A DNA stretch of 64,000 nucleotides from an uncultured Pseudomonadota bacterium. Lineage in GTDB: Bacteria > Pseudomonadota > Alphaproteobacteria > RF32 > CAG-239. Location: the NCBI GenBank assembly GCA_949295085.1, contig CASFJS010000004.1, positions 13,372-77,371 on the forward strand, read 5' to 3'. Positions 9,075-40,140 of the stretch are shown in pieces. The position numbers and the translations under genes are program-made. Below the pieces are notes generated by a model, which worked only from the letters and a program-made list of their open reading frames with translations, made no database searches and was not told the origin of the DNA. Position 1 is the first letter of the stretch. Every line of letters starts with the position of its first letter.

Positions 9075-9077
9075 GTC

Positions 9078-10214: not shown

Positions 10215-10270
10215 TCATTTTCCATTACTGCGGATAATGCCCCAGAACAAACGGAAAAGCAAGTTTTTAA

Positions 10271-10984: not shown

Positions 10985-11047
10985 CAGGCCTCTCCTTGAA
11001 TGCAGAGTACACTTTCATAGCCTAACCCTATATCGGGCAGGTTAAAA

Positions 11048-11683: not shown

Positions 11684-11813
11684 GTTTTTCCTCCGTTTGA
11701 TAATGTTCGTAAAATCAGCATAACGGTAAAAATAAGCAAAAGCAACCTTGTTTTACAGCCGATAATGATTATTTGGTTCTGCTGATAACCGTTAATTTGT
11801 AAGGAGAAAAACA

Positions 11814-12323: not shown

Positions 12324-12581
12324 TAATGTATTGATTTATCTTGATATTATAAGATATTGATAATTACGTATTGACATATTTATTAAAATACGCCAAAATT
12401 TTGACAAAAATAGAATCGGAATGTGATTAATCAGACGAGTTTTTATCTGTCACAAGAGGCATTTGAACCAACAGACCATAATCACACTCCAAATAAACTT
12501 CAGAGGTCTGTTTTTTTATTTGCCGGAAACAGATAAAGAGGGAGCCCCGTTCTTTGCGGGGCTTTTCCTTATTTTTTGTTT

Positions 12582-21589: not shown

Positions 21590-21592
21590 AAA

Positions 21593-23317
21593 ATGAAAAA
21601 GGTATTTTTATTTATTCTGGCATTGATGTTGATGGTGAAAACCGTTTGGGCGCAGAGCTTTGACGCCACCGTCAATCGCACAACCGTACCGGAGGGCGAA
21701 ACATTTGTTCTAACGCTGGACCTAAAAGATGTTGATACCTCGTCCACGCCGGATATCGGCGCCTTAAGCAAAGATTTTACGGTGCTGTCTGTATCCAACG
21801 GCTATCGCACCAATATTATCAACGGAGATGTCAGCAAATCGCGCCAGTGGAGTCTGGTTTTGATACCTGACCGAAGCGGCAGTTTGACCATTCCGTCGAT
21901 TGAGCTTGCCGGCTATCAAACGCAACCCATTACCTTAAATGTGATTCCGGCCGGTACGACCGATCAGCTGGTGCAGGGGCAGGCGGCCGATACACCGCGT
22001 TTCAAAATAAGCGGCGATATTGATAATTTTTCACCTTATGTTCAACAGCAGCTTAATTATCGGCTGACGATTTATGATGCCGGCGGTTTGCAGGGGGAGA
22101 CGCCGTTTTTTGTAACCGATAATGACGACTGGATAATCAAAAGTTTGGGTGAGCCGCAGGTCGAGACTAAAATTGTCAACGGTCAAACCTTGCGCGAAAT
22201 TACTTTTAACTATGCTTTATTTGCCCAAAGAAGCGGAGAACAGACTGTTCCGCCGGTGCGTTTTAACGGCTATTATTTGACTAAAGAAACCCGTACGGAT
22301 CCGTTTGCCCGTTTTTTTGATAATGATCCGTTTTTTGCCTCTTTCGGTATGAACGATGTTTTTGCCTCGCGCACGCCGGTTGTTTTAAACACCAAGCCGA
22401 TAAAAGTTAACGTCCGTCCGGCAAAGGTTGATACCGGTTGGTGGTTGCCGGCAGAAGAAGTTAAACTTTCGGCCGAATTTGCCGGTGACAAGCCGCAATT
22501 CAAATCCGGTGAGGCAATCAGCCGCACCATTTATCTGAAAGCGGTTGGTGTTTTGGATAATCAATTGCCGGAAATCAAGTTTGCCGCGGTTAACGGGGTT
22601 AAACAATATCCGGAAAAACCGCAAACCGATATGAAAGTTGAGAACGGCAAAGTTGTTTCTTATGCCCGCATGACCAATGTTTATATTCCGGAACAAGCCG
22701 GTGAAATCATTTTACCCGAAATAAGCGTCGACTGGTTTAACACCGCAACCGGTCAGGCCGAAACGGCAGTTATTCCGGCTTATCATACCGAGGTGATGGC
22801 AGGAATTCAGTCGTCGGCATCTGTTGCCGCAAAGCCGCGTCCGGAGCAGCAGCCGGTTTTGATGCCGGCCGCACCGAGCCGGACGGTCACGACAGTAGAG
22901 CAGGTTGATAACACGCAAATTATTTGGTATTTGCTGATAGCTTTTGTCGGCGGTATAATTCTGACATTGCTTGTATCAAAATTGATTACTTTCGCCGCGA
23001 CGCCGACAACCAATCATAAAAAAGCCGTTTTGGCGGCGGCCGAAACCAAAAATTTGCCCAAATTGCGTGATGAGCTTTTGGTTTGGGCGGCAGCGGAATT
23101 TCCGCGGCACAAAATTTCCAATTTACAAGATGTTGCCGATATTTTCCAAAATTCGGCCTTTAATAAGGAGCTTGACAGGCTGCGGGAGGCTTTGTATGCT
23201 GAAACGGCCAAAGATTGGGATGATAAAACTTTTATCGAAATTTTCAAAAAAATATCAAAACAAACCAGAAAACAACGGAGAAAAACCGATGAGCCGCTTC
23301 CAAAACTTTACAGGTAA
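21593..23317 (+). CDS. batD: BatD-like oxygen-tolerance protein
   Basis: 574 aa. Signal peptide, large periplasmic domain and a C-terminal TM helix. Last gene of the bat operon. Confidence 0.65.
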   Translation: MKKVFLFILALMLMVKTVWAQSFDATVNRTTVPEGETFVLTLDLKDVDTSSTPDIGALSKDFTVLSVSNGYRTNIINGDVSKSRQWSLVLIPDRSGSLTIPSIELAGYQTQPITLNVIPAGTTDQLVQGQAADTPRFKISGDIDNFSPYVQQQLNYRLTIYDAGGLQGETPFFVTDNDDWIIKSLGEPQVETKIVNGQTLREITFNYALFAQRSGEQTVPPVRFNGYYLTKETRTDPFARFFDNDPFFASFGMNDVFASRTPVVLNTKPIKVNVRPAKVDTGWWLPAEEVKLSAEFAGDKPQFKSGEAISRTIYLKAVGVLDNQLPEIKFAAVNGVKQYPEKPQTDMKVENGKVVSYARMTNVYIPEQAGEIILPEISVDWFNTATGQAETAVIPAYHTEVMAGIQSSASVAAKPRPEQQPVLMPAAPSRTVTTVEQVDNTQIIWYLLIAFVGGIILTLLVSKLITFAATPTTNHKKAVLAAAETKNLPKLRDELLVWAAAEFPRHKISNLQDVADIFQNSAFNKELDRLREALYAETAKDWDDKTFIEIFKKISKQTRKQRRKTDEPLPKLYR

Positions 23318-24194
23318 GATATATCTGCGCCCGATAGTCTATCCCGGGGATGATAAAATAACTTATTGCCTGCCGCAGGAAGAAGCTGATAAGGCCTTTG
23401 CCGCCGGTTTGCCGGAAATTGAATTGGAAGGCGTTGCGGCAAAGTCTTCCGCGCCGAAAATAGCCGTCATTCTGACCCGCGACCAACATCCGGATCGTCA
23501 ATTACCTGATTACTCTTTACCTTTGGCAACGGCGGAGGCTGTCACGCTTTCCGGCGGAAAAATATGTCCGGTAGGCTATGACAAGGTTGCCGGACAATTG
23601 GCGGCCATTCATCCGGATGGTGTTTTCCTGCCCGGCGGTGTGTTTGACGTACCGCTTGATTGGGAAGAAAACGAACCGGAACATCCGGTTGATTTGCGGC
23701 GTTTCAATGTGTACAGAGAAGTTATCGATTATGCCAAAGAACACAAATTACCCTTGCTGGCGGTTTGCGGCGGCATGCAGGTTTTGGCATGCTGTTTTGG
23801 CGCCAAGATTGGCCGCATTGAGGGACATCGTACAAATATCAAAGATTTTGCGCACAAAATGGAAATTAAACAAAACAGCTTGCTGCAAAAAATTACCGGA
23901 GCATCCGAGATGGAGGTCAACTCCTGGCACACCTGGGCGGTAAGCAAAGATAACATCGGCAATAACCTGGCTCATACATCTCCGGATGGCATTGTTGAGG
24001 CAATTGAACCGGTCAATCCATGGCATCCGTTTGTTTTGGGTATTCAGTCGCACCCCGAATATTTTGTAAAAAAAGGTTATGCCGCCGCGGATAAAATATT
24101 CAAAAGTTTTATCAAAGCAGCCGAAGAAAAAGCCCTTTCCAAACAAAAGTCAGCGTTTAGCATGTTAACGGAAAAGGGTATAAGTCGTGGGTGA
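23289..24194 (+). CDS. Class I glutamine amidotransferase-like hydrolase (peptidase C26 / gamma-glutamyl-GABA hydrolase family)
   Basis: Catalytic Cys motif LAVCGGMQ and His motif (IQSHPE). Start placed at MSRFQNF (ATG 23289), overlapping the end of batD. Confidence 0.65.
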   Translation: MSRFQNFTGKIYLRPIVYPGDDKITYCLPQEEADKAFAAGLPEIELEGVAAKSSAPKIAVILTRDQHPDRQLPDYSLPLATAEAVTLSGGKICPVGYDKVAGQLAAIHPDGVFLPGGVFDVPLDWEENEPEHPVDLRRFNVYREVIDYAKEHKLPLLAVCGGMQVLACCFGAKIGRIEGHRTNIKDFAHKMEIKQNSLLQKITGASEMEVNSWHTWAVSKDNIGNNLAHTSPDGIVEAIEPVNPWHPFVLGIQSHPEYFVKKGYAAADKIFKSFIKAAEEKALSKQKSAFSMLTEKGISRG

Positions 24195-24804
24195 AGACTT
24201 AATCGAGATAAAAACCGACACACACTTTGTGGTCGATTTAATGTATGCCGGCACCACGCACAATATGACCGGACAGCCGGTGTATCAGGAAATTGGACTG
24301 GGTAATCATGCTTATGTTCACAAAGATTTATGGTTTTGTTTGCAAAAATTGATACCTTATCTGGATAAAACCGGTCGTCGGCTCAAAATTTACGAGGCTT
24401 TTCGTCCGGTGGCAGCACATAAATTGTTGTTTGCGGCCATCCCGCAAGACGGCTTTTTTGTTCCCGAGGCAGAACGTTCGCCGCATTGCCGGGCTGCGGC
24501 GGTTGATGTGGCGTTGCTTGAGGCAGACGGTGTGGAGCTGGTTTATCCGACCAAAGTTGATGCTTATGATGAAAATTTTGCCAAAGAAGTCCAATCCGGG
24601 CATTTGGAAAGTTTTTTCAAATATCTGCAAAAAGCCACGCTTGACTATCAAGATGCCTCAATACCGGAAGCTATTCACAATCGTGACGAGTTATACCGTC
24701 TTATGCAGAGTATCGGTTTGGTTCCGGTGCCCCGGCGTCATGAATGGTGGCATTACGAGCTGCCGGCTGCCCGTACGGACAAATATCCGCTGATTGAATT
24801 TTAA
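24187..24804 (+). CDS. D-Ala-D-Ala dipeptidase (VanX/DdpX, peptidase M15D)
   Basis: VDLMYA..., SPHCRAAAVD and EWWHYE motifs. Likely GTG start. Confidence 0.7.
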   Translation: MGEDLIEIKTDTHFVVDLMYAGTTHNMTGQPVYQEIGLGNHAYVHKDLWFCLQKLIPYLDKTGRRLKIYEAFRPVAAHKLLFAAIPQDGFFVPEAERSPHCRAAAVDVALLEADGVELVYPTKVDAYDENFAKEVQSGHLESFFKYLQKATLDYQDASIPEAIHNRDELYRLMQSIGLVPVPRRHEWWHYELPAARTDKYPLIEF

Positions 24805-25430
24805 ATAACCCCCATTTTTTGAGCGCGAATAACGGCTTGTGTGCGGTTGGTCGCGCCAACGGCACGCAAAAGAGCATTAATATGCAGCTTGACGGTAGCT
24901 TCCGATACGTCCATTTGGTAAGCAATTTGCTTATTGGATAATCCTTGAGACAAATATTTTAAAACTTCAAATTGGCGGTTGGTCAGTTTTTTGCCGTTGG
25001 CAAGATTCATTTTATCGGCGGCCTGTTTAAGCAGCGCCGGCGGAAAATAAGTTGCACCGTTTAAGATCAGGCCGAGTGCCGAATTAAGCACTTTGGTATC
25101 AATGTCTTTCGGCAGATAACAACAAACGCCAAGATTAAGCGCTCGCTTAATGGCGTGAATATTTTCCGAAGATGAAATAATGCCGATTCTGATATCCGGC
25201 GCGTATTCCTTAATACTTTTTATGCTGTCTTCCCAGTCTGTCTTTGTCATATTAAGATCGGTCAACAATAAATCGGTATCAGGTTCTTTTTTCAAAAGCT
25301 CCAAGAGTTCCGCAAAAGAAGCGGCCTCCGATAAGGTTGCCTCGGGCAGTATTTTATCAAGGTTCAGTCTTAAGCCGTCTCGGTAGAGTGCATGGTCGTC
25401 CGCAATTATAATTTTCATTGTCGTCTCCAT
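24801..25430 (-). CDS. LuxR/NarL-family response regulator
   Basis: Receiver domain (IIIADDH...DLLLTDLNM) plus C-terminal LuxR-type HTH (LSNKQIAYQMDVSEATVKLH). Confidence 0.72.
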   Translation of the reverse strand: METTMKIIIADDHALYRDGLRLNLDKILPEATLSEAASFAELLELLKKEPDTDLLLTDLNMTKTDWEDSIKSIKEYAPDIRIGIISSSENIHAIKRALNLGVCCYLPKDIDTKVLNSALGLILNGATYFPPALLKQAADKMNLANGKKLTNRQFEVLKYLSQGLSNKQIAYQMDVSEATVKLHINALLRAVGATNRTQAVIRAQKMGVI

Positions 25431-25514
25431 AACTAAAATCTTCGGATTTTTGCGTCCAAACCGATTACCGAAAATATATGATCAAAAAGTCATATTTAAA
25501 GCTTTCTAATTTAT

Positions 25515-25970
25515 TTATTGCAAATAAAGACAATCCACGCCGGCCTCTTTAAGCATTTGTTCGGAATAAGCCACTTTATCGCGCCAGGTTCCGGCCGGCT
25601 GGCCTTCCTGAGGTTCAAACTTGTAGGTTACCACCATTTTGATGCCGGATTGGATGATTGCCCGCGCGCAGTCAGGGCAGGGCATGGAGGTCACATAAAT
25701 GATACAGCCTTTGAGCGAGGCACCGATAAGACAGGCATTATACACGGCATTACGCTCGGCATGCTCAAAGAAATCATATTTGGTCGGGCGCTCAAGCCTT
25801 TCGGGAATATCGTCGCTCACGCCGCGGACAATACCGTTGTAGCCGGTGGAGCGTATTTCGCGATCAGGTCCGACGACAATGGCGCCGACCTTGGTTGACG
25901 GATCCTTTGACCAACTGGCAACCAGCCTGGCCATTTCCATAAAACGATAGTGCCATTTATCCGAAAACAT
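25515..25970 (-). CDS. dCMP deaminase (ComEB-like)
   Basis: HAERNA...PCPDCA zinc-deaminase motifs. Start placed at MFSDKW (the ORF-track start lies further upstream). Confidence 0.7.
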   Translation of the reverse strand: MFSDKWHYRFMEMARLVASWSKDPSTKVGAIVVGPDREIRSTGYNGIVRGVSDDIPERLERPTKYDFFEHAERNAVYNACLIGASLKGCIIYVTSMPCPDCARAIIQSGIKMVVTYKFEPQEGQPAGTWRDKVAYSEQMLKEAGVDCLYLQ

Positions 25971-26042
25971 GTGCCTACTCCCCAAAATATGATTGACATT
26001 ATTATAAAAATGAAAGATTTTAGAGGCAACACTTTTTTGTAA

Positions 26043-27341
<1,299 letters not shown>

Positions 27342-27352
27342 GGCTTAAAGCC

Positions 27353-27402
27353 CGTAAAAAAAGGCCCCTTTTTGAACTGTCCAACTTTCCGGGGACAGTT
27401 CA
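27353..27402. repeat. Left boundary repeat of the AT-rich island (hairpin GAACTGTCC-N-GGACAGTTC preceded by CGTAAAAA..GCCCCT)
   Basis: About 50 bp. Its reverse complement recurs at 33320-33370 with the hairpin stem conserved. Confidence 0.7.
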
Positions 27403-27495
27403 TAAGGCCGGGGAGCTTTTAGCGTATGCAATAGGAATCCTCGGATTCTAAAGGCTAAAAGAATCATTTTGCGAAATGTGATTTACGAACTCTCC

Positions 27496-27526
27496 GACCA
27501 CCTTAGTGCTTAGGTGGTCTTTTTTT
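27496..27526 (+). terminator. Rho-independent terminator
   Basis: GACCACCTTAGTGCTTAGGTGGTC hairpin followed by TTTTTTT. Confidence 0.6.
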
Positions 27527-27985
27527 ATGGAGATTTATTATTTATGGGGAAAATATGCGCTTTTTTTCGGACATAGAAATGTCTATGGCAATATTGACCA
27601 AGAATTGGAAAAGCAAGTAGAAAAGCTCATAATTCAGGAAAATATTGATACGTTTTGGATCGGCGGTTATGGTGAATTTGATAAATTAGCTTCTCGAACA
27701 GTTAGAAAAATGCAGGAAAAATATCCTGTAATACGGTTAATATTGATTATTGCTTATGCAGGGCAACTCCACCGCTTCGGAGATGAATTTCCTTTTGATG
27801 GTTTTGATTATCCTCCTGAAGCTGAAAATGCACCACAAAAATTTGCCATCTCGGCCAGAAATCATTATATGGCTGAAAATTGCGATATGGTTATCTCTCA
27901 TATTGTACATGATTATGGCGGGGCCTATGACGCCGTTAGAACTGCTAAAAGTAAAGGTAAAATTATAATAAATTTAGTTAAATAA
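27527..27985 (+). CDS. YpsA-like DUF1273 protein (SLOG superfamily, predicted nucleotide/ADP-ribose binding)
   Basis: Motifs correspond to B. subtilis YpsA (FGHRN ~ TGYKP; WIGGYGEFDKLA ~ ILISGQLGVELWA; EKYPVIRLILIIAY ~ EEYPDLKVAVITPF). AT-rich. Confidence 0.5.
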   Translation: MEIYYLWGKYALFFGHRNVYGNIDQELEKQVEKLIIQENIDTFWIGGYGEFDKLASRTVRKMQEKYPVIRLILIIAYAGQLHRFGDEFPFDGFDYPPEAENAPQKFAISARNHYMAENCDMVISHIVHDYGGAYDAVRTAKSKGKIIINLVK

Positions 27986-28169
27986 ATATAAAATCTCTCC
28001 AAATAAGAAACTTAAAAAATATATACATTGACTTGCTATAAAAAATCGGCTTAGACTTTAATATAAAATAAATCAATATGGAAATTTTGACATTATAGTT
28101 TATTTTAATATTAGCTAATGGAGTTTTGAACGAGAAGCAAGTAAAAACTATTATAATTAGGAGTTGTCG

Positions 28170-29162
28170 ATGATTTATCCAAATAAATTAAAGCCCGGAT
28201 CTCATATTCGAGTTATTGCGCCATCAAGAAGTTTCAAAATTATTTCAGAAGAAACACGCGAAATTGCGAAAAAACGTTTTGCAGATATGGGAATTTCGGT
28301 AAGTTATTCCAAACATTGTGATGAAATTGACGATTTTGTTTCATCATCAATTGCTTCAAGACTTGAAGATTTGCATGAAGCGTTTGCGGATAAAAGCGTT
28401 GACGGTATTTTAACAGCTATTGGCGGGTTTAATACTAATCAGTTAATTGATAAAATTGATTATACTCTTATTAAAAACAATCCTAAAATTTTATGTGGAT
28501 TTTCAGATATTACTTGCCTTTGCCATGCCATAACAGCAAAGACAGATGTTGTAACCTATTCTGGTCCGCATTTTTCAAGTTTTGGAATGCTTTATGGTTT
28601 TGATTATACATTGGACTATTTTAAAAAGTGTCTAATTGAGAGCAAGCCTTATCAGGTTGTCCCGGCCAAAGAGTTTAGCAATGATGAATGGTTTATGGAT
28701 CAAGAGAAACGTAATTTTACACCCAATAGTGGCTTTTGGATCATTAACAAAGGAAAAGGGAGTGAATTTGAGGGAAAATTAGTTGGCGGGCATGTTCGTT
28801 GTCTGAGTTCATTGCAAGGTACAGAATTTTGGCCGTCTTTGGAAAATACTATTTTGTTTTTAGAAGAAGATGAGGAAACAAACGCCGTTTTATTCGATCG
28901 TTTGTTGCAATCGTTAATTCATCAAGCAGATTTTAAACATGTTAAGGCGTTAATTATTGGCCGTTTCAAACCAGAATCAAAAATTGACAGAAATTTGCTT
29001 GAACAAATCATTCATACCAAAGAAGCCTTGAAAGAGTTACCTGTAATTGCCAATTTTGATATTGGACACTCGACTCCGATTATTACCTATCCAATCGGGG
29101 GACGGATTTCTCTTAAAATGCGGGAAGACGAGTTGCCAGCTATTGAAATACTGGAGCATTAA
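28170..29162 (+). CDS. Peptidase S66 LD-carboxypeptidase / microcin C immunity MccF family
   Basis: GGFN...CGFSDIT (nucleophile Ser) with His/Glu downstream. About 331 aa. RBS AGGAG at 28159. AT-rich. Confidence 0.7.
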   Translation: MIYPNKLKPGSHIRVIAPSRSFKIISEETREIAKKRFADMGISVSYSKHCDEIDDFVSSSIASRLEDLHEAFADKSVDGILTAIGGFNTNQLIDKIDYTLIKNNPKILCGFSDITCLCHAITAKTDVVTYSGPHFSSFGMLYGFDYTLDYFKKCLIESKPYQVVPAKEFSNDEWFMDQEKRNFTPNSGFWIINKGKGSEFEGKLVGGHVRCLSSLQGTEFWPSLENTILFLEEDEETNAVLFDRLLQSLIHQADFKHVKALIIGRFKPESKIDRNLLEQIIHTKEALKELPVIANFDIGHSTPIITYPIGGRISLKMREDELPAIEILEH

Positions 29163-29165
29163 AAA

Positions 29166-29196
29166 AATAGCGGGAAGTTTACTTCCCGCTATTTTT
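29166..29196. terminator. Bidirectional terminator between convergent genes
   Basis: Perfect palindrome AATAGCGGGAAGT-TTAC-TTCCCGCTATT flanked by A and T runs. Confidence 0.65.
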
Positions 29197-30307
29197 ATCT
29201 TGATAATTTATTTTGTGTTAATGTAAAGATTATTGAATTGGAAGAGTTCTCTCCTGTTTGCTTTTGCTGGTTTTCTATAACTTCTGTATTTGATTTTTGA
29301 TTTTGAGATGTTGGACATATAAAATCCATAATTTTTTGAGTATACTCTCCTTTATTAGATCCGTACTCTAATAATTCGTATTGATGTAGTGTCTTTCTTA
29401 ACACCTCTTTGGGAAGATTGGTTTTATCGGCACATGCTTTCATTATCTCAAGATATTTTTTCATTAGACGATTGGTGTTGCCCTTATTAGACGGTTCCAA
29501 TCCATCATTATATAAAGCCATGCTCGTTACAATCGTGTCTTCCATTTTTACTCGGATATTAGGATTTTGAATGTATTTATCTAATCCTAATACGGGGTGG
29601 CAATCCATAACATGATTTAATCCATAAATCTGTTTTAGTACCGTAGAGCTTCCTAAGGCAATCTCTATTCCGAGCTGCTTATCCTGATTTTCTAAAATAA
29701 TAACATTTCCAATATCTGAAAACGTATCTTTTCCATAATCACGCAAAGCGAGATTAAAATTGCGTCCCCAAACACCATCAATACCAAGTTTATGACGATA
29801 ATATTTAGGCTGCATAGTGTCTATTTCAAACATTTCAGATTTAAACATACTATGAGCCAAATCCATCAAATCAGTATCTCTGGCACTAATACGAATTTTT
29901 ATGTCATTAGGATCAATATTCCATTGTTCTTGGATAAAGCTGTAAGTCTGTTTTGTAATATCTTCCAGCCGTTCCGGTTTAGTCAGTATTCCAAGACTTG
30001 GAAAATACGATCCCCAATTCGGATAAAAATCATCATTTTCATAATTTTTTAAATTTCGAGTACGAATACAGGGCTGCGACATAACATAACCGCCAGCAGG
30101 AATACTGTCATTCAAAAAATAAGGCTTTAAAACACTGATGTGCGAACCAATAAAACGAACAGATGGATCTATTCCGGACGATATTTTAACAGGGTCATGT
30201 TTTATACAAGAACGGTCCTGAAAATAGGTTAGAAAACCGTCAATCATATTTTGCATATGAAAATGACTTTCTTTCCTGTTGAAATCTGGCATATCTTTTA
30301 TTTTCAT
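29195..30307 (-). CDS. Standalone alanyl-tRNA synthetase-like class II aaRS catalytic-domain paralog
   Basis: 370 aa. Alignable to the AlaRS N-terminal catalytic core: FLTYFQD...SSGIDPSVRF ~ FLDFFHSKGH...SSSLVPHNDPTLLF; SQPCIRTRN ~ SQRCVRAGG; GIEIALGSSTVLKQIYGLNHVMD ~ [23 protein letters not shown]. No tRNA-binding or editing domains. Confidence 0.45.
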   Translation of the reverse strand: MKIKDMPDFNRKESHFHMQNMIDGFLTYFQDRSCIKHDPVKISSGIDPSVRFIGSHISVLKPYFLNDSIPAGGYVMSQPCIRTRNLKNYENDDFYPNWGSYFPSLGILTKPERLEDITKQTYSFIQEQWNIDPNDIKIRISARDTDLMDLAHSMFKSEMFEIDTMQPKYYRHKLGIDGVWGRNFNLALRDYGKDTFSDIGNVIILENQDKQLGIEIALGSSTVLKQIYGLNHVMDCHPVLGLDKYIQNPNIRVKMEDTIVTSMALYNDGLEPSNKGNTNRLMKKYLEIMKACADKTNLPKEVLRKTLHQYELLEYGSNKGEYTQKIMDFICPTSQNQKSNTEVIENQQKQTGENSSNSIIFTLTQNKLSR

Positions 30308-30317
30308 TTTTTTTATC

Positions 30318-31130
30318 CTATTTTTTACCGTAACCCGACTTAAACTGGGCCATTATTAAGACGTTATTATGATCATGCTGTTTGAACAGTTTAGCCATTT
30401 GGACAATTCTTGTTCCGTACTTTTGACGTCCTTCTGCTGTCATGCCAATTTTCCAATTCCATTCCGGTGTTTTGCACTGTTCACTTAAAGCTTCACGCAG
30501 GAATTGAGATGGGATTCTTGGTGTTACCAGCCTTTCCGGGAAGAATAGCTGCGTATTATCTGAACTTTTTAGATAAAAATAAGATTCAACCGAAGTACGA
30601 GCAGAATCTTCATATATGACGTTATCTTTGATAAAATCTACTAAATTACGATTCCCGGAATATTGAGTTTCAAATTCTGAAATATTCCGTGATGATCCGT
30701 CATAATCAAGCAACTGAACATTCTTTTGTTTGAAAAAGTTATCCATATCATCTGTATCACATTTAACATTTGGAATAAAATGTAAATGTGCATGAAATAT
30801 TGATTTAATATGTGGCGGCGTATTTAATTCTTCCGCCTTACTTGTTCCATGCTCAAACATAATAAAATTTTCTGATTTTGTTGTATTCTCCAAACGATCC
30901 AATATATAACCTACTTCTCGTCCTTGAGCGTCATTAAATTCTGCAAATGTGTTAATATGTTCTTTAGGGAGAATAATAATATGATTGGGAGCAATCGGAA
31001 ATTTATCTGGAATAACCTTAAAGCTCTTAGTTTCAAATAAAGTTACATTACTCTGTAATTCTGGATATTGCTCTTTGATATTTTGAAATTCATCTTTCAA
31101 ACCATCACATAAAACGCAATTTTTTATCAT
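30318..31130 (-). CDS. HIT-family hydrolase (histidine triad; possible phosphoramidase)
   Basis: HAHLHFIP histidine-triad motif and N-terminal CVLCDG. The HIT domain is followed by a C-terminal extension of about 150 aa. Confidence 0.7.
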   Translation of the reverse strand: MIKNCVLCDGLKDEFQNIKEQYPELQSNVTLFETKSFKVIPDKFPIAPNHIIILPKEHINTFAEFNDAQGREVGYILDRLENTTKSENFIMFEHGTSKAEELNTPPHIKSIFHAHLHFIPNVKCDTDDMDNFFKQKNVQLLDYDGSSRNISEFETQYSGNRNLVDFIKDNVIYEDSARTSVESYFYLKSSDNTQLFFPERLVTPRIPSQFLREALSEQCKTPEWNWKIGMTAEGRQKYGTRIVQMAKLFKQHDHNNVLIMAQFKSGYGKK

Positions 31131-31732
31131 AAACTCGCCCCTCCAATGGCGTTTTTTGAGAATTTCATATAATAACCATTTTGTTTTTTACGAACATGAT
31201 TAGCATGTTTTATAATTTGGAAAGCTGCCTCTGTTGCTGACAACTTAGTTACATCTAAGCGTAAAAGATTTGGATGTTCTATCTCTGGCAACCCCAAGTT
31301 CGCAATTTGCTGAACTACATCCGGATTTATTGTTTTTAAAAACTTTTTCCGAAAAGGGTTGGCGATTCTTTTCTTGTTCTCTTTTACATCACACAGTAAC
31401 ATTACAGGAACGAATAAAGCCTGCCGTGTATTGGCAAGCTTTTCAACTGGTTTATAATATGAATTTTCTTCCCCTAGGGAAATTACATTTGTAAATATAA
31501 AAGATTCACCTTTAGGACAAATTTCTCCCATGGCTTCAAGAACAATATTACGCACCTTTAGTCGATATTCTTCATGTTTGGGATGGGAATAATTTTTTGA
31601 TACTGAAAAAATCGCATTTGTATACGAATGATTGTCAACTAAAGTGAATGATTGTTTTTTCTGGATTTCCTTTGCAATGGTTTGCTTTCCCACGCCTGGA
31701 CCTCCGATTAAATAAATGATTGTATTCCTCAT
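31127..31732 (-). CDS. P-loop nucleotide/nucleoside kinase-like protein
   Basis: Walker A motif LIGGPGVGKQTIAKEI, about 200 aa, adenylate-kinase / shikimate-kinase-like size. ATGA overlap with the HIT gene. Confidence 0.55.
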   Translation of the reverse strand: MRNTIIYLIGGPGVGKQTIAKEIQKKQSFTLVDNHSYTNAIFSVSKNYSHPKHEEYRLKVRNIVLEAMGEICPKGESFIFTNVISLGEENSYYKPVEKLANTRQALFVPVMLLCDVKENKKRIANPFRKKFLKTINPDVVQQIANLGLPEIEHPNLLRLDVTKLSATEAAFQIIKHANHVRKKQNGYYMKFSKNAIGGASL

Positions 31733-31805
31733 TTTAACCTTTATGCAAAATTAACATTGCGGCAATCAATTGACTTAATTTTGACAAAATATTTAGGGAA
31801 ACAAC

Positions 31806-31859
31806 ATGATCTTCATCAAAATTATTTCCTTTAATTGTCTTGTTTTCTGCGCCTTTTGA
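31806..31859 (+). other. Candidate 17-aa small ORF (MIFIKIISFNCLVFCAF), possible RiPP precursor/leader
   Basis: ATG preceded by AGGGAA. Two Cys. Lies 130 bp upstream of the radical SAM gene on the same strand. Highly speculative. Confidence 0.15.
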
Positions 31860-31871
31860 TTATTATCGGTT

Positions 31872-31888
31872 GTTAATATATCATTAAC
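31872..31888. promoter_or_regulatory. Palindrome GTTAAT-ATATC-ATTAAC in the divergent promoter region of the island
   Basis: Inverted repeat. A third GTTAAT copy lies at 31949-31954. Adjacent are TTGACA/TTGACT -35-like hexamers (31911-31927). Confidence 0.3.
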
Positions 31889-31991
31889 CATTATCGTGGT
31901 CAATATTTTTTTGACAAAATGTTGACTTTTCCCGATAAGAATGTTAGTGTTAATTGTTTTCCATTAAAAATTACCAGTTCAAGGATAAAAA

Positions 31992-33248
31992 ATGCAAGCA
32001 ACAAACTTATTCAGTCGCACAGTTCCATGTAAAAAAGAGCTAATTAAAGAAGATACCTCTGCTTATTTGGGAACGGAAACATATTCTATTATGAAAAATA
32101 GCTTATTACGCATATCCCCCAATGGAACTCTTGCAATTTCAGGAAAAACAATAAATAGTGTTTTATTCTTAGACAATGAAATGGTTGAGCTTCTTCAACA
32201 ACCGACTTTCACGTTGAATGGAATGCCGCAGTCCGTCGTTCAGAATTTATTAAGCCATGAACTAATAGAACAAACCGACAGGCCTAATTCTTTTAAAAAA
32301 GTCCATTGTCTAAATAACGCCTTGCCATATTATGGCAGAATTGAAATTACCGACGCTTGCCAATGTGATTGTGATATTTGTTATAAAGCGGGAATTCCTA
32401 CTCCTCCACCATCTCTGGATATTCTGAAAAAACGAATCAAGCATTTAAGAAAGCTGGGAATTACCAGACTTGAAATTTTAGGCGGCGAACCATTGCTCAG
32501 AAAAGATTTGCCTGAACTCTGTGATTTTGTAACTAAAGAAAACTTTTTATACACGATTGTAACTAACGGTGAGTATTTATCCTCGTTGGATAAAAGAGCC
32601 ATTAACTCATTAAAAAGCGCAAGTGATGTAATTATAAGTATTGACTCATACGGAGAATTACACGACAAAAGCAGAAAACGTCCGGGACTTTTTGCTAAAG
32701 ATATAGAGGGGATTCAGGTATTAAAAGAAAATGGTATCAACTGCTCTTTGTTATGTACTGTTAATCAGGATAATGAACCTGGCATTGACCAATTAGTCGA
32801 ATACCTAAAACCCTTTGAAGTTAATTTATTTATCCGGCCGACAATAATTGCCGGAGCTGCTGCTAACAACGAATTGCAAAATGTTGATATGCGCCGCATT
32901 TACGAAAAACACAAAAATAATCCGTACGTTTTTCATAATACCGTTCATTTAGCTGACAAAATTCCAGAATCAAAATATTATGGTTGCGATATTCGACAAC
33001 TGATTAATATTGATGTAAATGGCCGTCTACTAATTTGTCATATGGATCGTAAGCATAAAAAGGGGCCTATTGAGAAATATACTCCGGAAATGTTATTACA
33101 AGAATTGGATTTTACCCTGCGCTCACGCTTAAAAAAACAGGAAACCTGTAAGGATTGTGATGTTAACAGTTCATCAGAAGGAATTAAATGTGGGGGATTT
33201 TGCCAATTTTCAAATACTTTTATCAAAAATAAAATAAAAGAACGCTAA
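31992..33248 (+). CDS. Radical SAM / SPASM-domain protein with N-terminal RRE-like extension (peptide-modifying maturase-like)
   Basis: CQCDCDIC fits CxxxCxxC. Glycine-rich SAM motif (LEILGGEPLL). C-terminal Cys cluster CKDCDV...CGGFC (SPASM/twitch-like). About 120 aa of non-rSAM N-terminal domain. Confidence 0.7.
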   Translation: MQATNLFSRTVPCKKELIKEDTSAYLGTETYSIMKNSLLRISPNGTLAISGKTINSVLFLDNEMVELLQQPTFTLNGMPQSVVQNLLSHELIEQTDRPNSFKKVHCLNNALPYYGRIEITDACQCDCDICYKAGIPTPPPSLDILKKRIKHLRKLGITRLEILGGEPLLRKDLPELCDFVTKENFLYTIVTNGEYLSSLDKRAINSLKSASDVIISIDSYGELHDKSRKRPGLFAKDIEGIQVLKENGINCSLLCTVNQDNEPGIDQLVEYLKPFEVNLFIRPTIIAGAAANNELQNVDMRRIYEKHKNNPYVFHNTVHLADKIPESKYYGCDIRQLINIDVNGRLLICHMDRKHKKGPIEKYTPEMLLQELDFTLRSRLKKQETCKDCDVNSSSEGIKCGGFCQFSNTFIKNKIKER

Positions 33249-33319
33249 TTATGAATGGAAAATTTTATGATGAGCTATTTATAGGTCATTTAATATCTAT
33301 CAAAAAAAGCCTCTTAATT

Positions 33320-33370
33320 TTGAACTGTCCCCGGAAAGTTGGACAGTTCACTTCGGAGGGGCTTTTTACG
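33320..33370. repeat. Right boundary repeat of the AT-rich island (inverted copy of 27353-27402)
   Basis: TTGAACTGTCCCCGGAAAGTTGGACAGTTCA...GGGGCTTTTTACG is the reverse complement of the left copy. It doubles as a bidirectional terminator. Confidence 0.7.
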
Positions 33371-33381
33371 ATGGATAACGG

Positions 33382-33696
33382 TTATTTTTCAAGCCCGTCG
33401 ATCAGTGGATTGTTTTTAACTTTTTTTATCAAAACCTGATAATCGCGCAAAACATCATCGCCGGCCTTGTTGTGCTCCAGCACCACAATCCGGTTGCAAT
33501 TATTGAGGGCTTCAACAATCTTGGCGGGAATATAATCAAGCAGCAAAACATCATGGTCGTTTCGGAACAACGTTGCGTGTTTCCCGCCGTCATAAAGCAA
33601 CAACGGCCTTTCCGGCTTCGCTCTTTCATAAGGCAGCACAAACACCGGCACACCCTCATCGCTCAAAACAATCTGATAATCCTTTGCGTGTTTCAT
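33382..33696 (-). CDS. Hypothetical protein
   Basis: 104-aa ORF with host-like GC, coupled to the next ORF. Confidence 0.3.
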   Translation of the reverse strand: MKHAKDYQIVLSDEGVPVFVLPYERAKPERPLLLYDGGKHATLFRNDHDVLLLDYIPAKIVEALNNCNRIVVLEHNKAGDDVLRDYQVLIKKVKNNPLIDGLEK

Positions 33697-33968
33697 TAAC
33701 TGAGTCTTTCTTTGGCCTTTTTCTGCAAAGAGATAGCTTTGTCAATTGTCCAATCGGCGGCTTTAACGCTTTTGTCATACAAAAATTCACCAATGCCGAA
33801 ATTCATCCCCGGCGCCATCTGGTCAGCCATATTTTTGGCGCCGCCGACAAATAATTTGGCCGTTTCGGCAGTAAATTTTAAGCCGTATTTTGCAGCCTTG
33901 GAGGCGATAATTGTCGCGCTCAGGCCGGCTTTTCCGGCGGTTTTTAATGTTTTTTCCATGGTCGGCAT
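33696..33968 (-). CDS. Hypothetical protein
   Basis: 90-aa ORF, Ala/Lys-rich. Confidence 0.25.
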   Translation of the reverse strand: MPTMEKTLKTAGKAGLSATIIASKAAKYGLKFTAETAKLFVGGAKNMADQMAPGMNFGIGEFLYDKSVKAADWTIDKAISLQKKAKERLS

Positions 33969-34290
33969 AAATTTTCTCCCAATTATGATAACTAAAGGTT
34001 AACACAATTTTAACTTTTTGGCAAGTGGCAAAAATTTACCTCCGGCGGTAATGAGGTAATCAATTAAAGAAAATGCACGTTAATTTCCGGTTGACTCTCG
34101 ATATTTGTTGTATTAAATTCCTGCAATGAAGCCAATCGCAAGTTGTAAGGTTTTTTTGATATGTGTTTGTTTATGATCATAGCCGCCCGCGGCATTATTA
34201 TCCCCTAGGGGGATTTACGCTTTTTTACACATATCGTTTTTTAGTTTTCAAAGATACAATCATTTATTTGTTTTTAAGGTGTTTTAAGAG

Positions 34291-37200
34291 ATGAAACATT
34301 ATGCGGATGTTAAGGCAAAGCCTGACTTTGTCGAATTGGAAAAAGAGGTTTTGAAGTTCTGGGATGAGGACAAGACTTTTGAAAAATCGGTGCACAATCG
34401 CGACGGCGCGGCCGAGTTTGTGTTTTATGACGGACCGCCGTTTGCCAACGGCACGCCGCACTACGGCCACATCATGGTGTCTTATGTCAAGGACGTCGTC
34501 GCCCGTTTTCAGACTATGAACGGCAAAAAGGTTGAGCGCCGTTTGGGCTGGGACTGCCACGGCCTGCCGGCCGAAATGTCCGCCGAAAAACAGCTCGGTG
34601 TTTCCGGACGCAAGCAGATCGAGGCCTACGGGGTTGAAAAGTTCAACAATTTCTGCCGTTCCGATGTCTTAAAATATTCCGGCATCTGGGTCGATATGTT
34701 CAAGCGTATCGGCCGCTGGGTAGATTTCAACCACGACTATAAGACCATGGACCTGCCGTTTATGGAAAGCGTCATCAGCAACTTCAAACAGCTTTATGAC
34801 AAGGGCTTGGTCTATGAGGACTACCGCGTTTTGCCGTACTCTTGGGCCGCCGAAACTCCGCTGTCAAATTTTGAGGTCAATCAGGGCTATCAGGACAAAA
34901 CCGACAACGCCATTACCGTGATGTTCAAGCTTGAAAACGGCATGAAAATTCTGGTTTGGACCACTACGCCGTGGACCCTGCCGTCCAATCTGATGTTGGC
35001 GGTGGGCGATGATATCGACTATGTCGTTATGGAAGAAGACGGCCAGAAGTATATCTTGGCGCGCGCGCTGCTCGGTCGCTATAAAAAGCAGCTTGAGCAC
35101 GCCGTTGAGGCGGGCTCCTTAAAAGGGCGTGATCTGGTCGGTATGAGCTACGAGCCGATGTTCCCGTACTTCAAACACTTAAAAGACAAGGGCTGTTTCA
35201 AAGTCTTGTCCGGCGAGTTTGTTTCAACCGAGGACGGTACCGGCGTGGTTCATATTGCCCCCGGCTTTGGTCAGGACGACTTTGACGCCTGCCGCGCGTA
35301 TGACGAGCATTTTCCGGTTGTCTGTCCGGTAGATGAGGCCGGCAAATTTACCGCCGAAGTGTCTGATTACGAGGGCAAACAGGTTTTTGAAACCAACGAG
35401 CCGATTATGCAGTGGCTCAAAGAAAACGGCCTTTTGGTCAAAAAAGAACAATACACCCACTCTTATCCTTTCTGCTGGCGTACCGACACGCCGCTGATTT
35501 ACAAAGCAATGTCGTCGTGGTTTGTCCGCGTAACCGACTTCCGCGACGATATGGTCAAAAACAACCGGCAGATTAACTGGGTGCCGGAGCATATCAAAGA
35601 CGGCCGTTTTGGCAAATGGCTTGAGGGCGCGCGTGACTGGTCAATTTCGCGCAACCGTTTTTGGGGCACGCCGATTCCGGTCTGGAAGTCAGATAATCCG
35701 GCCTATCCGCGGGTTGATGTTTTCGGCTCCATCGCCGAGATAAAGGCCAAAACCGGATTTGATGTCGTCGATTTGCACAAACCTTATATTGACGAAGTTG
35801 TTTACCCCAATCCGGACGATCCTTCCGGCAAGACGATGATGCGTCGCGTCGGCGATGTGTTCGACTGCTGGTTTGAATCCGGCTCCATGCCTTATGCTCA
35901 GGTGCACTATCCGTTTGAGAACAAAGAGTGGTTTGAGAGCCATTTTCCGGCTGATTTTATTGTCGAGGCCATGGACCAGACCCGCGGTTGGTTTTATACC
36001 CTGACGGTATTGTCAACCGCGCTGCACAATCGTCCGGCGTTCAAAAACTGCATTTGCACCGGTCTGTTGATGGCTGAAGGCGGACAAAAGCTTTCCAAAC
36101 GCCTTAAGAATTATCCTGACCCGAACGAGGTTTTGGACACCATCGGCTCGGATGTTTTGCGTTGGTTTTTGGTATCTTCGCCGGTATTAAAAGGCGGCAA
36201 TCTGGCGGTTGACAAAGAGGGCAAAGAGATTGCCAAAGCCGCCCGCGAGGCTTTGATACCGTTATGGAACGCGTTTTACTTCTTTACGCTCTATGCCAAT
36301 GCCGAAAGCTACAGGGCCAAAGAGGTTTACGCCTCAACCGAGGCGATGGACAATTATATTCTGTCCAAATTGCAAAAAACGGCCACGATAGTCAAAAACG
36401 GCTTGGAAACCTATAATGTCGCTGTCGCTTGTGATGAGATTGCCGCATTTATTGAGGTCTTAAACAACTGGTATATCCGCCGTTGCCGCGATCGTTTTTG
36501 GGAGGGCGAGCCTCTGGCATTTGATGTCTTGTACACCGTTTTGCTCAATTTGAGCAAGATTGCCGCGCCGCTGATGCCCTTTGTCGCCGAATATGTTTAC
36601 AAAACCCTAAGCGGCGGCGAATCCGTTCATCTGGCGGACTATCCGGATCTGTCGGCAATAAAATTTGATGCCGCGCTGGTTGAGGATATGGACTTTTTGC
36701 AGGATTTGTGCTCGGCGGCCAAGTTCATCCGCGAAGAAAAGAACCTTCGCAACCGCCTGCCGCTCAAGTCGCTGACCGTTGTCGGCCGTGATCTGCCGGC
36801 GGCTTATGGCGAAATTGTCAAAGATGAGCTAAACGTCAAAGAGGTTTTGTTTGACGCCAATTTGAGCGCCTATGCCGACAAAAAGATTTATCTTTATACG
36901 CCGCTTTTGGGCAAAGCTCTGGGCAAAGAAATGGGCGCGGTAATGGCTGCCTACAAGCAGGGGCATTGGAGCCTCAATGCCGACGGAACTTTGGCGATTG
37001 CCGGCCATAATCTGACCAAAGATTTGTTCGAAGTTCGGCTGGAGATGAAAGAGGGCGTTGCCGGCCGTGCCTTTGCCGATAACAAGGCCTTGGTCACGTT
37101 AAACACGACCGTAACGCCGGAACTCAAACGCGAGGGTATGGCGCGCGACTTCATTCGTCTGGTGCAAACGCTGCGCAAGGATAAAGACTTTAATATTTCC

Positions 37201-37377
37201 GACCGTATAGAGCTGAGCTATGCCACTGACAATACCGAGTTGGCGCGGGCGCTGGAAGAAAATCGTGCCTATATTGCCGAGCAGGTTTTGGCAGTAAAGG
37301 TCGATAACTCCTGCGCCGGAGGTACCAAAGCCGATATTGAGGGCGCCGCCGTTTGCTTTGACGCTAAGGTCGCCTGA
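34291..37377 (+). CDS. ileS: Isoleucine--tRNA ligase, type 2 (eukaryote-like)
   Basis: PPFANGTPHYGHI HIGH region is characteristic of type-2 IleRS. KMSKS motif (KLSKRL). 1028 aa. No C-terminal Zn-finger of type 1. Confidence 0.85.
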   Translation: MKHYADVKAKPDFVELEKEVLKFWDEDKTFEKSVHNRDGAAEFVFYDGPPFANGTPHYGHIMVSYVKDVVARFQTMNGKKVERRLGWDCHGLPAEMSAEKQLGVSGRKQIEAYGVEKFNNFCRSDVLKYSGIWVDMFKRIGRWVDFNHDYKTMDLPFMESVISNFKQLYDKGLVYEDYRVLPYSWAAETPLSNFEVNQGYQDKTDNAITVMFKLENGMKILVWTTTPWTLPSNLMLAVGDDIDYVVMEEDGQKYILARALLGRYKKQLEHAVEAGSLKGRDLVGMSYEPMFPYFKHLKDKGCFKVLSGEFVSTEDGTGVVHIAPGFGQDDFDACRAYDEHFPVVCPVDEAGKFTAEVSDYEGKQVFETNEPIMQWLKENGLLVKKEQYTHSYPFCWRTDTPLIYKAMSSWFVRVTDFRDDMVKNNRQINWVPEHIKDGRFGKWLEGARDWSISRNRFWGTPIPVWKSDNPAYPRVDVFGSIAEIKAKTGFDVVDLHKPYIDEVVYPNPDDPSGKTMMRRVGDVFDCWFESGSMPYAQVHYPFENKEWFESHFPADFIVEAMDQTRGWFYTLTVLSTALHNRPAFKNCICTGLLMAEGGQKLSKRLKNYPDPNEVLDTIGSDVLRWFLVSSPVLKGGNLAVDKEGKEIAKAAREALIPLWNAFYFFTLYANAESYRAKEVYASTEAMDNYILSKLQKTATIVKNGLETYNVAVACDEIAAFIEVLNNWYIRRCRDRFWEGEPLAFDVLYTVLLNLSKIAAPLMPFVAEYVYKTLSGGESVHLADYPDLSAIKFDAALVEDMDFLQDLCSAAKFIREEKNLRNRLPLKSLTVVGRDLPAAYGEIVKDELNVKEVLFDANLSAYADKKIYLYTPLLGKALGKEMGAVMAAYKQGHWSLNADGTLAIAGHNLTKDLFEVRLEMKEGVAGRAFADNKALVTLNTTVTPELKREGMARDFIRLVQTLRKDKDFNISDRIELSYATDNTELARALEENRAYIAEQVLAVKVDNSCAGGTKADIEGAAVCFDAKVA

Positions 37378-37476
37378 ACCAAATATTGGCCACTCAAAAA
37401 ACTCGTCATCGCCGTGCATGCCCCTGGTAATGTCACGCCGCCTCGTTGTAGGAAAAAGCCTGAGGAACAGCTTTTG

Positions 37477-40071: not shown

Positions 40072-40094
40072 AATTTCAATGCCTCCGCTTCCAT

Positions 40095-40140
40095 AGATAT
40101 AATATAGGAAATCACGGGGCATAAAATCAAGAGGTTGCTA
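40095..40140 (-). promoter_or_regulatory. Putative sigma-32 (RpoH)-type promoter for clpB
   Basis: On the minus strand: CTTG-N19-CCTATATT, close to the alphaproteobacterial RpoH consensus CTTG-N17/18-CYTATNT, about 25 nt upstream of the clpB ATG. Confidence 0.35.

Follow-up and report, generated by a model that had tools for sequence, protein, structure and literature searches.

An alanyl-tRNA synthetase-like protein paired with an MccF-clade S66 peptidase in a mobile bacterial gene cassette: a candidate aminoacyl-nucleotide system

Two described systems are among the closest to the locus reported here. In the microcin C system the S66 peptidase MccF, the HIT protein MccH and the GNAT-type C-terminal domain (CTD) of MccE act on aminoacyl-nucleotides (PMC8323819, PMC7157772), and MccF splits the amide bond of the aminoacyl-nucleotide in processed microcin C and in related aminoacyl- and peptidyl-adenylates (PMC8323819). 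The second is ascamycin biosynthesis, in which AcmF, a truncated protein resembling alanyl-tRNA synthetase (AlaRS) and lacking the residues for ATP and alanine activation, binds sulfamoyl-adenosine via R93, W100, F104, E216 and Q219 and, with an essential Glu232 (equivalent to D235E), moves alanine from Ala-tRNA to the sulfamoyl nitrogen (PMC12945691). Here we analyze a low-GC segment (27353-33370) within a 64,000-nt stretch of DNA from an uncultured alphaproteobacterium, referred to below as the window. The segment encodes an AlaRS-like protein, AlaL, next to an S66 peptidase.

The functional unit consists of five genes, S66-AlaL-HIT-kinase-radical S-adenosylmethionine (SAM) enzyme, at ~28149-33258, and is smaller than the low-GC island: DNA homology to the window in other loci covers only ~28149-33258, from the S66 gene through the radical SAM gene. 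From the folds, residue patterns, linkage, fusions and mobility that we observe, we infer a substrate, a direction of the AlaL reaction and a biological role. Our tentatively preferred reading is that of a horizontally mobile operon built around the AlaL-S66 pair, in which AlaL would synthesize an aminoacyl-nucleotide and the MccF-clade S66 peptidase would be the coupled antidote. The features of the segment and its immediate surroundings are as follows.

26061-27341, plus strand: eno, from the list of open reading frames (ORFs).
27336-27405 (core 27374-27401): left compound hairpin repeat, right after the eno stop; bounds the low-GC segment on its left side, in this genome alone.
27506-27985, plus strand: YpsA/SLOG-like ORF; Pfam PF06908 at 24.5 bits, under the 27.7-bit cut-off; outside the conserved cassette.
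28164-29162, plus strand: S66 serine peptidase of the MccF clade; both S66 Pfam domains; adjoins AlaL in 47/51 loci.
29146-29213: inverted repeat where the S66 and AlaL genes converge, probably a terminator for both directions.
29195-30307, minus strand: AlaL, a 370-aa paralog of the AlaRS catalytic core, identified by profile, structural model, Foldseek and residue counts.
30318-31130, minus strand: two-domain HIT protein of 270 aa; HAHLH motif; CWF19-like domain pair.
31127-31732, minus strand: P-loop protein resembling nucleoside monophosphate kinases; GGPGVGKQ motif; ATGA overlap with the HIT gene.
31733-31991: divergent regulatory region with boxes resembling -35 and -10 elements and the palindrome GTTAATATATCATTAAC at 31872-31888.
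31992-33248, plus strand: radical SAM enzyme of 418 aa; CX3CX2C at residues 123-130.
33318-33387 (core 33322-33349): right copy of the hairpin repeat, inverted.
33382-33696 and 33696-33968, both minus strand: two small ORFs of 104 and 90 aa with a 1-base overlap.
34291-37377, plus strand: ileS, from the ORF list.

Computed directly, the GC content of 27353-33370 is 0.34, against 0.478 (20000-27352) and 0.485 (33371-41000) in the flanks, and the profile falls from 0.45-0.51 to 0.29-0.37 at ~27350-33400 before rising again to 0.41-0.53. The sharp GC drop reported in a preliminary description of this DNA is thus borne out, as are its ORF positions and gene identities, save for two sub-domain calls on the radical SAM enzyme (SPASM and RRE) discussed below. 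Pfam supports both domains of the S66 protein, the HIT protein (DcpS_C) and the Radical_SAM domain; the matches of the YpsA-like protein, the kinase (AAA_18) and AlaL (tRNA-synt_2c, residues 22-84) are sub-threshold.

The fold of AlaL was established by modeling. The AlphaFold2 model, built with 30 homologues, has a predicted local distance difference test score of 88 and a predicted template modeling score of 0.84, with ~335 of the 370 aa structured. In a Foldseek search of the PDB with this model the top 19 matches were all AlaRS, 18 of them catalytic fragments, with template modeling scores of 0.66-0.73 at ~14% identity, and the profile of the AlaL family matches AlaRS in the PDB with an E-value (E) of 1e-6. 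The original AlaRS-like call therefore stands, and the fold is that of a class IIc catalytic core. An exhaustive hidden Markov model search of 1.84 billion cluster representatives recovered 780 clusters below an E-value of 1e-3, and 285 below 1e-30. This total is small relative to the number we would expect of canonical AlaRS (our own estimate), which argues that AlaL is a distinct family and not a collection of AlaRS fragments.

Residue equivalences come from an hhalign alignment to an E. coli AlaRS sequence that was cross-checked in its motif-2 region, where it is consistent with the PDB alignments, and from frequencies over 259 family members. R82 corresponds to the motif-2 arginine R69 of AlaRS and is kept in 97% of the family, the adenine-stacking F102 in 98%; N201 (AlaRS N212) is Asn in 97%, and E215 (AlaRS D235) is Glu in 97% and Asp once. 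W98 and D198 are further key residues, and the position of AlaRS Gly237 is mostly Ala. Position 222, where AlaRS has the motif-3 arginine, is never Arg: it is Thr, Val, Ala, Asn or Met, and T222 in the window protein. Six further invariant residues, D144, D146, Y170, H172, R182 and N185, have no AlaRS counterpart. The protein ends after the first helices of the tRNA-recognition region, which include a conserved arginine, R280, and lacks the Mid2 subdomain, the editing domain and the C-Ala domain. AlaL thus has neither the Asp235 and motif-3 Arg of a functional AlaRS nor its full recognition, editing and C-Ala domains. Since the motif-3 arginine is lacking, the earlier description of AlaL as aminoacyl-adenylate-forming is not established. 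Judged by its residues, AlaL keeps a predicted pocket for the adenosine/alpha-phosphate and alpha-amino parts of alanyl-adenylate.

Truncated class II aminoacyl-tRNA synthetase (aaRS) paralogs with non-translational roles include EpmA/PoxA, which works with the radical SAM enzyme EpmB, the archaeal AsnA and the amino acid:carrier-protein ligases. These are stand-alone class II cores engaged in amide or ester formation on a non-tRNA substrate, a likeness to AlaL, and AlaL in the window is also paired with a radical SAM enzyme. However, AlaL is of AlaRS lineage rather than LysRS, AsnRS or SerRS lineage, it has lost the motif-3 arginine, and its obligate partner is a peptidase. The radical SAM enzyme of the cassette is SPASM-like and resembles SkfB and MoaA, while EpmB is a KamA-type aminomutase.

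AcmF is the best mechanistic lead for AlaL. Both are truncated AlaRS-like proteins with Glu at the position of Asp235 and a Trp-x3-Phe adenine-stacking pair, in a comparison made by published AcmF residue numbers only; both lack the canonical ATP-activation residues, and each is paired with a hydrolase. By the same published numbers, and not by alignment, R82, W98, F102, D198, N201 and E215 of AlaL mirror the AcmF pattern and its spacings (W-x3-F, acid-x2-amide). The amide residue differs: it is Gln219 in AcmF and Asn in AlaL (N201, 97%). AlaL is also without a full tRNA-recognition domain, and its cassette has neither an accompanying AlaRS (AcmD) nor sulfamoyl-adenosine biosynthesis genes. 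In the ascamycin pathway the aminoacyl group is stripped from the aminoacyl-nucleoside by AcmE (PMC12945691), a secreted alpha/beta hydrolase, whereas the S66 protein here is cytoplasmic. The hosts differ as well, AcmF being found in Streptomyces sp. 80H647 and AlaL in gut Alphaproteobacteria and Patescibacteria.

The S66 protein matches both PF02016 and PF17676 (E 1e-32 and 1e-28), has a predicted Ser114/Glu234/His302 triad that aligns to the triad of Bacillus anthracis MccF, and shows no signal peptide on inspection of its N-terminus. Against the PDB it scores E 1e-37 with B. anthracis MccF and 1e-29 with E. coli MccF, compared to 1e-20 with LdcA, which places it in the MccF clade and not the LdcA clade, as the preliminary description had proposed. 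Its nearest relatives are the structural-genomics proteins BA_5613 ('MccF-like') and Lmo1638 (E ~1e-101, ~55% identity as estimated from the alignments), so that the protein is closest to the BA_5613/Lmo1638 subgroup and less close to MccF proper. The inter-domain loop contains a conserved Trp (SNDEWF), out of register with the Trp of B. anthracis MccF in the alignment. The likeness to microcin C immunity thus consists of an MccF-clade S66 protein with an intact Ser-His-Glu triad, with which a HIT protein and, in some relatives, a GNAT protein co-occur. The MccB adenylyltransferase, the MccA heptapeptide and the MccC exporter are absent from the cassette.

We surveyed the surroundings of AlaL homologues gathered from the protein database, species-representative genomes and the encoding contigs. 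The cassette is rare, with 39 loci among 185,579 species genomes, and the close relatives are uncultured gut Alphaproteobacteria. In 47 of the 51 loci the AlaL gene has an S66 gene no more than 6 kb away, 43 of these loci having a gap of at most 151 nt, and two of the four remaining loci are incomplete contigs. Pairwise identities of AlaL and of its partner S66 correlate (r = 0.84-0.87). In a Parcubacteria metagenome-assembled genome (MAG; L036, 5245-7323) AlaL and S66 form a single ORF of 692 aa, which could be a real fusion or could reflect a stop codon lost in assembly. Such a neighborhood survey had been set as a test in the preliminary description, with loss of synteny in relatives named as the adverse outcome; the opposite is seen, the AlaL-S66 linkage being kept across phyla with correlated identities and one fusion. 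The linkage originally envisaged also took in the HIT and radical SAM genes. It holds for S66, while the kinase and radical SAM genes are accessory and occur only in part of the family.

The remaining partners vary between lineages. The 270-aa HIT protein is the partner in gut Alphaproteobacteria and in one archaeal bin; the closest clade alone adds the kinase and the radical SAM enzyme. A different set, seen in Patescibacteria, on a Calothrix plasmid and in some further MAGs, combines AlaL and S66 with an HD protein, a methyltransferase and a 370-aa class II core. The HD partner is YedJ/YpgQ-like, and YpgQ is a nucleoside triphosphate pyrophosphohydrolase. The class II core is AsnRS/AsnA-like, has no anticodon domain and retains an intact motif 3 (GLGIERF). 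Hybrid sets occur in L016, in L051 and L052 (kinase-HIT fusion, S66, AlaL, methyltransferase and LysR) and in L056 (S66-AlaL-S66-AsnRS-like-radical SAM). Fusions comprise GNAT-AlaL, AlaL-methyltransferase, AlaL-HD, REC-AlaL and kinase-HIT, and a sensor histidine kinase is encoded within 6 kb of AlaL in 12 Patescibacteria loci. Remote variants have RimI-like GNAT, dCTP-deaminase-like and NUDIX genes as neighbors. Two such loci, from Dojkabacteria/Saccharibacteria (L048 and L050, ~6300-13100), encode a remote AlaL of 24-26% identity, keep S66 and add a RimI-like GNAT and a methyltransferase; L050 also carries two tandem dCTP-deaminase-like genes and a gene for a 307-aa radical SAM protein, and the L048 contig stops just past AlaL.

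The cassette moves. In human-gut contigs (L059-L066) it recurs at 96% identity (window 27892-33252) between wholly different flanks, where it adjoins an rve transposase, a pair of XRE-type helix-turn-helix genes and exchangeable modules: either an SNF2/ResIII helicase or a DNA methylase accompanied by Vsr and HEF_HK. The flanks differ again in L001-L004 and L012-L014, and restriction/helicase, OLD or methylase genes are other neighbors. These data bear out the earlier view of the island as foreign and mobile. Contigs from human-gut metagenomes carry it very commonly, and its radical SAM protein is indexed in 651 blocks of the collection. A marine variant (L056, 3340-9266) has a phage GpA terminase gene on one side and a phage integrase gene on the other, and looks like prophage cargo. 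A phage origin of the cassette was considered and rejected, as no AlaL relative turned up in IMG/VR and the PHROGs matches were generic only. Nor do the component proteins fit any system model of PADLOC v2.0, in which the only matches were a generic radical SAM-core match to pVip (E 7e-16) and a kinase match at E 0.0026; membership of a known anti-phage defense system was accordingly discarded. The search for an empty site through the 3' end of eno yielded one metagenome match (L055), 82% identical over eno with another gene downstream, and was uninformative.

The radical SAM enzyme has a canonical core (PF04055, E 4e-14; CX3CX2C as CQCDCDIC at residue 123), a 115-aa N-terminal extension and a Cys-rich, SPASM-like C-terminus. 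The latter was read off the sequence as a CX11GX4C ... CX2CX10CX3C pattern. Neither SPASM (PF13186) nor the PqqD-like RRE domain (PF05402) matched in Pfam even at E<=10, and of the SPASM domain and RRE-like N-terminus originally assigned only this cysteine pattern is left. The best matches, SkfB, BlsE, MoaA and viperin, are weak, and the NCBIfam maturase matches all fall far under their cut-offs. Viperin and MoaA identities were rejected on the same grounds (NCBIfam viperin, 48 bits vs 180). The designation 'peptide maturase' is likewise unsupported, the cassette being without a precursor peptide gene and the RRE undetected: a small-ORF listing and an eight-locus alignment of the kinase-radical SAM intergenic region revealed no conserved small ORF in or beside the cassette. 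One candidate precursor of 24-37 aa in that gap was dismissed, as it overlaps the promoter boxes, is broken by indels in L003 and L014 and is absent in L004. Homologues of the enzyme 65% and 50% identical occur in L056, with AlaL at the prophage end, and in L058, where AbiTii and restriction genes are the neighbors. The intergenic region itself has conserved promoter-like -35/-10 boxes and a palindrome. The palindrome, GTTAATATATCATTAAC, is near-identical in L012, carries one or two changes in L001-L003 and L013-L014 and could not be made out in L004. It resembles an operator, but the cassette has no regulator gene.

The HIT protein carries an N-terminal CxxC, HAHLH at residues 113-117 and C-terminal PSQFLR and WNW motifs, invariant in the HIT family (HxHxH), a small family essentially limited to AlaL cassettes. 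Its best Pfam match is DcpS_C and its best structural matches are spliceosomal CWF19 proteins, in their C-terminal domain pair; a sequence-level match to CwfJ_C_1 or CwfJ_C_2 was not found in Pfam. CWF19/Drn1 proteins are eukaryotic lariat-intron turnover factors, whereas the cassette protein is bacterial, has a complete HxHxH and an N-terminal CxxC and is without a Dbr1-like N-terminal domain. The preliminary description had proposed an MccH-type phosphoramidase. MccH is HinT-like and ~140 aa long; the cassette protein has the HxHxH catalytic motif, but its two-domain, CWF19-like build of 270 aa, often fused to the kinase, is not the single-domain HinT-like architecture of the MccH clade. For the kinase, single-sequence and profile searches of the PDB matched the P-loop of AK6/Fap7-type kinases only, and a more specific identity was therefore rejected; its weak match in PHROGs is to phrog_505, a polynucleotide kinase of phages (E 1e-4). 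An ATGA overlap joins the kinase and HIT genes, and the HIT and AlaL genes are 10 nt apart, so the three-gene ATGA coupling first described holds for the former pair and not for the latter.

What might this operon do? All recurrent partners act on nucleotides or on amino or carboxyl groups, and AlaL keeps an aminoacyl-AMP-shaped pocket; the handling of an aminoacyl-nucleotide is the most economical reading of the operon. We infer, like the preliminary description, synthesis of or resistance to such a compound, a proposal that the present data make more plausible. In the preferred reading AlaL would join an amino acid to an adenosine-type nucleotide or nucleoside held in the former ATP site, the donor being aminoacyl-tRNA, as in AcmF, or ATP by way of substitute residues. 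The product would be a non-canonical aminoacyl-nucleotide of the aaRS-inhibitor kind. The S66 peptidase would cut its amide bond as MccF does, limiting or reversing the product as self-immunity or reset. The HIT-kinase pair and the radical SAM enzyme may build, tailor or dispose of the nucleotide part; in other lineages the YedJ-type HD pyrophosphohydrolase, the SAM methyltransferase and the AsnRS/AsnA-like ligase would stand in for the HIT-kinase pair. We favor synthesis because the AlaL pocket is conserved beyond the needs of ligand binding and the AsnRS-like partner looks catalytically competent, because the REC fusions and histidine-kinase neighbors suggest a regulated output, and because AcmF provides a precedent. 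With no exporter or carrier peptide, and with sites beside a prophage integrase, insertion sequence (IS) elements and restriction, OLD or helicase genes, we favor a role within the cell or in conflict at close contact, such as a halt to translation upon infection or contact-range antagonism, over a classical secreted antibiotic.

Several observations weigh against this proposal. The cassette ORFs include no exporter, no carrier-peptide gene and no obvious sulfamate or phosphoramidate scaffold enzymes. A covalent AlaL-S66 fusion would be awkward if S66 merely destroyed the AlaL product. The CWF19-like HIT protein and the weakly polynucleotide-kinase-like kinase point toward RNA ends rather than small molecules. 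The likeness to AcmF is one of published residue numbers and not of an alignment. PADLOC has no model for the system, and its association with defense islands is anecdotal. A tRNA-dependent mechanism is not secured, since AlaL has only the first recognition helices and N-terminal AlaRS fragments of ~368-385 aa studied in the Schimmel laboratory reportedly make adenylate without charging tRNA.

Neither PADLOC nor NCBIfam nor PHROGs has a model for an AlaL-S66 system, and in the full-text literature searched, which leaves out most subscription papers, nothing on an AlaRS-like/S66 cluster was found apart from the AcmF work. This agrees with the original impression that the combination is not a described system. 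The sole precedent for an AlaRS-like enzyme in aminoacyl-nucleotide antimetabolite chemistry is AcmF, from one Streptomyces pathway. If the preferred reading is correct, the cassette would be a second, widespread route to such antimetabolites, independent of ribosomal peptides and of MccB; it would give a function to a family of several hundred AlaRS-like sequence clusters and hint at what the BA_5613/Lmo1638 branch of MccF peptidases, which has solved structures but is a functional orphan, cleaves in nature. Being abundant in human gut metagenomes, moving at 96% identity and lying beside defense genes and prophage ends, the cassette is of ecological and practical interest: it could provide a new inhibitor of aaRSs, a novel determinant of resistance to Trojan-horse antibiotics or a novel mechanism of immunity. 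There is a realistic chance that it is something more distinct than one more aminoacyl-nucleotide antimetabolite or immunity locus.

A resistance-only role is the strongest competitor, a minority possibility that we take seriously. Here AlaL would be a catalytically disabled decoy or targeting module that captures aminoacyl-adenylate mimics (ascamycin, microcin C and aminoacyl-sulfamoyl-adenosine types) and presents them to the S66 amidase, the HIT/HD phosphohydrolase, the kinase, the methyltransferase or the GNAT. AlaL retains aminoacyl-AMP-binding residues without the ATP-binding motif-3 Arg, and its fusions to S66, HD, methyltransferase and GNAT fit a recognition domain joined to inactivating domains. 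The partner classes S66, HIT and GNAT are those of the known microcin C immunity proteins MccF, MccH and MccE, the exporter, precursor gene and biosynthetic scaffold genes are absent, and, like resistance genes, the cassette travels with IS elements. However, the intact motif 3 (GLGIERF) of the AsnRS-like partner suggests real ATP-dependent ligase chemistry, and REC-AlaL with nearby histidine kinases suggests an enzymatic output under regulation. The HIT protein does not belong to the MccH/HinT type, and the AlaL invariants Y170, H172, R182, N185, D144 and D146 look catalytic, beyond what ligand binding asks for.

Rather doubtful, and of wider consequence if true, is the possibility that AlaL and S66 are the core of a conflict system making a toxin on demand. 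On a trigger such as phage infection or a two-component signal, an intracellular, aaRS-inhibiting aminoacyl-nucleotide would stop translation, and the S66 amidase together with the HIT/HD hydrolases would provide the antidote or reset the system. Immune or abortive-infection chemistry would thereby gain a new class, common to Patescibacteria, gut Alphaproteobacteria, cyanobacterial plasmids and prophages.

We consider it unlikely that the cassette modifies or repairs RNA ends, specifically the tRNA acceptor end. AlaL would then dock on a tRNA-like 3' end in phage-host conflicts over tRNA, the kinase, HIT, HD and methyltransferase proteins healing or marking termini and S66 removing aminoacyl or acyl groups. 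The kinase match to phrog_505 and its fusion to HIT recall the logic of PNKP and aprataxin, the first tRNA-recognition helices with the conserved R280 are retained, and the cassette has defense-island and prophage neighbors. On the other hand, the S66 clade is known for small aminoacyl-nucleotides and not for RNA, the HD partner is of the YedJ/YpgQ type, the cassette has no RNA ligase and no tRNA gene nearby, and AlaL is without Mid2, the subdomain that reads G3:U70.

Quite improbable is a housekeeping role in the cell wall, with S66 acting as an LD-carboxypeptidase on (UDP-Mur)NAc-peptides, which are peptidyl-nucleotides in their UDP-MurNAc form, and AlaL and the AsnRS-like protein adding or amidating stem-peptide residues. 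The best named NCBIfam match of the S66 protein is indeed muramoyltetrapeptide carboxypeptidase, although its 103 bits fall short of the 378-bit cut-off, and one PDB entry labels the closest S66 structures 'LD-carboxypeptidase family protein'; yet MccF is a much nearer relative of the protein than LdcA, the cassette is rare (39 loci/185,579 species genomes), patchy, AT-rich and mobile, unlike core wall metabolism, and the HIT, kinase, radical SAM and methyltransferase proteins have no place in the scheme.

HIT (Fhit), HD (YqeK) and NUDIX proteins are the classical families of dinucleoside polyphosphate (ApnA) hydrolases, and class II aaRSs the classical Ap4A synthases. That AlaL synthesizes an alarmone of this or another nucleotide kind, which HIT, HD or NUDIX proteins, its alternative partners, would remove by analogy to RelA/SpoT, draws on those families, on the REC-AlaL and AlaL-HD fusions and on the DcpS_C match of the HIT protein, but is very improbable given the missing motif-3 Arg, normally needed for ATP activation, and leaves the near-obligate S66, the methyltransferase and the AsnRS-like partner unexplained.

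Two elements of the low-GC segment lie outside the conserved unit. The repeat arms at 27336-27405 and 33318-33387 are 70 nt long and 74% complementary; within each arm a 28-nt core (27374-27401 and 33322-33349) forms a hairpin, the two sharing the same stem but with the loop inverted, and the 64 kb window has no third copy (0 expected by chance). The bracketing inverted repeats noted initially are thus real in the window, and they are not part of the system: the hairpin pair is absent from 50 related loci, and no conserved inverted repeats surround the cassette in other loci, which rules out terminal inverted repeats as a mobility signature. The YpsA-like ORF, initially counted in the gene set, scores below the Pfam cut-off and never travels with the cassette, no homologue lying beside AlaL in any other locus. 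A riboswitch, T-box or tRNA attachment site was likewise rejected: the Rfam signal at the convergent terminator was sub-threshold noise only, and tRNA genes are absent from the vicinity.

Among the neighboring genes, the two small ORFs 33382-33696(-) and 33696-33968(-) lie between the island and ileS, are of intermediate GC and have no match in Pfam, NCBIfam, PADLOC or PHROGs. Upstream, and judged from translation only, 24187-24804(+) has the look of a VanX/DdpX-type D-Ala-D-Ala dipeptidase (EWWHYE motif) and 25515-26144(-) that of a dCMP-deaminase-like protein. Full-length aaRS genes occur within a few kb of the cassette in the window (34291-37377) and in L004 (1880-3646), L005 (10366-11799), L016 (8669-10099) and L009 (10477-15119). 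They comprise ileS, aspS, glyQS and an Asx-type aaRS plus a class I aaRS, in unrelated contexts, and L009 also has a second, divergent S66 gene; this proximity could reflect chance, co-regulation or resistant copies of the target. Finally, an ORF of 223-249 aa with a domain resembling the N-terminal part of S-adenosylmethionine synthetase lies beside the S66 gene in three loci, and a homologous segment is found inside a 1104-aa ResIII protein adjoining an Eco57I-type gene in two others (coordinates of these ORFs: L001 6678-7349, L013 10388-11137 and L002 7606-10920).

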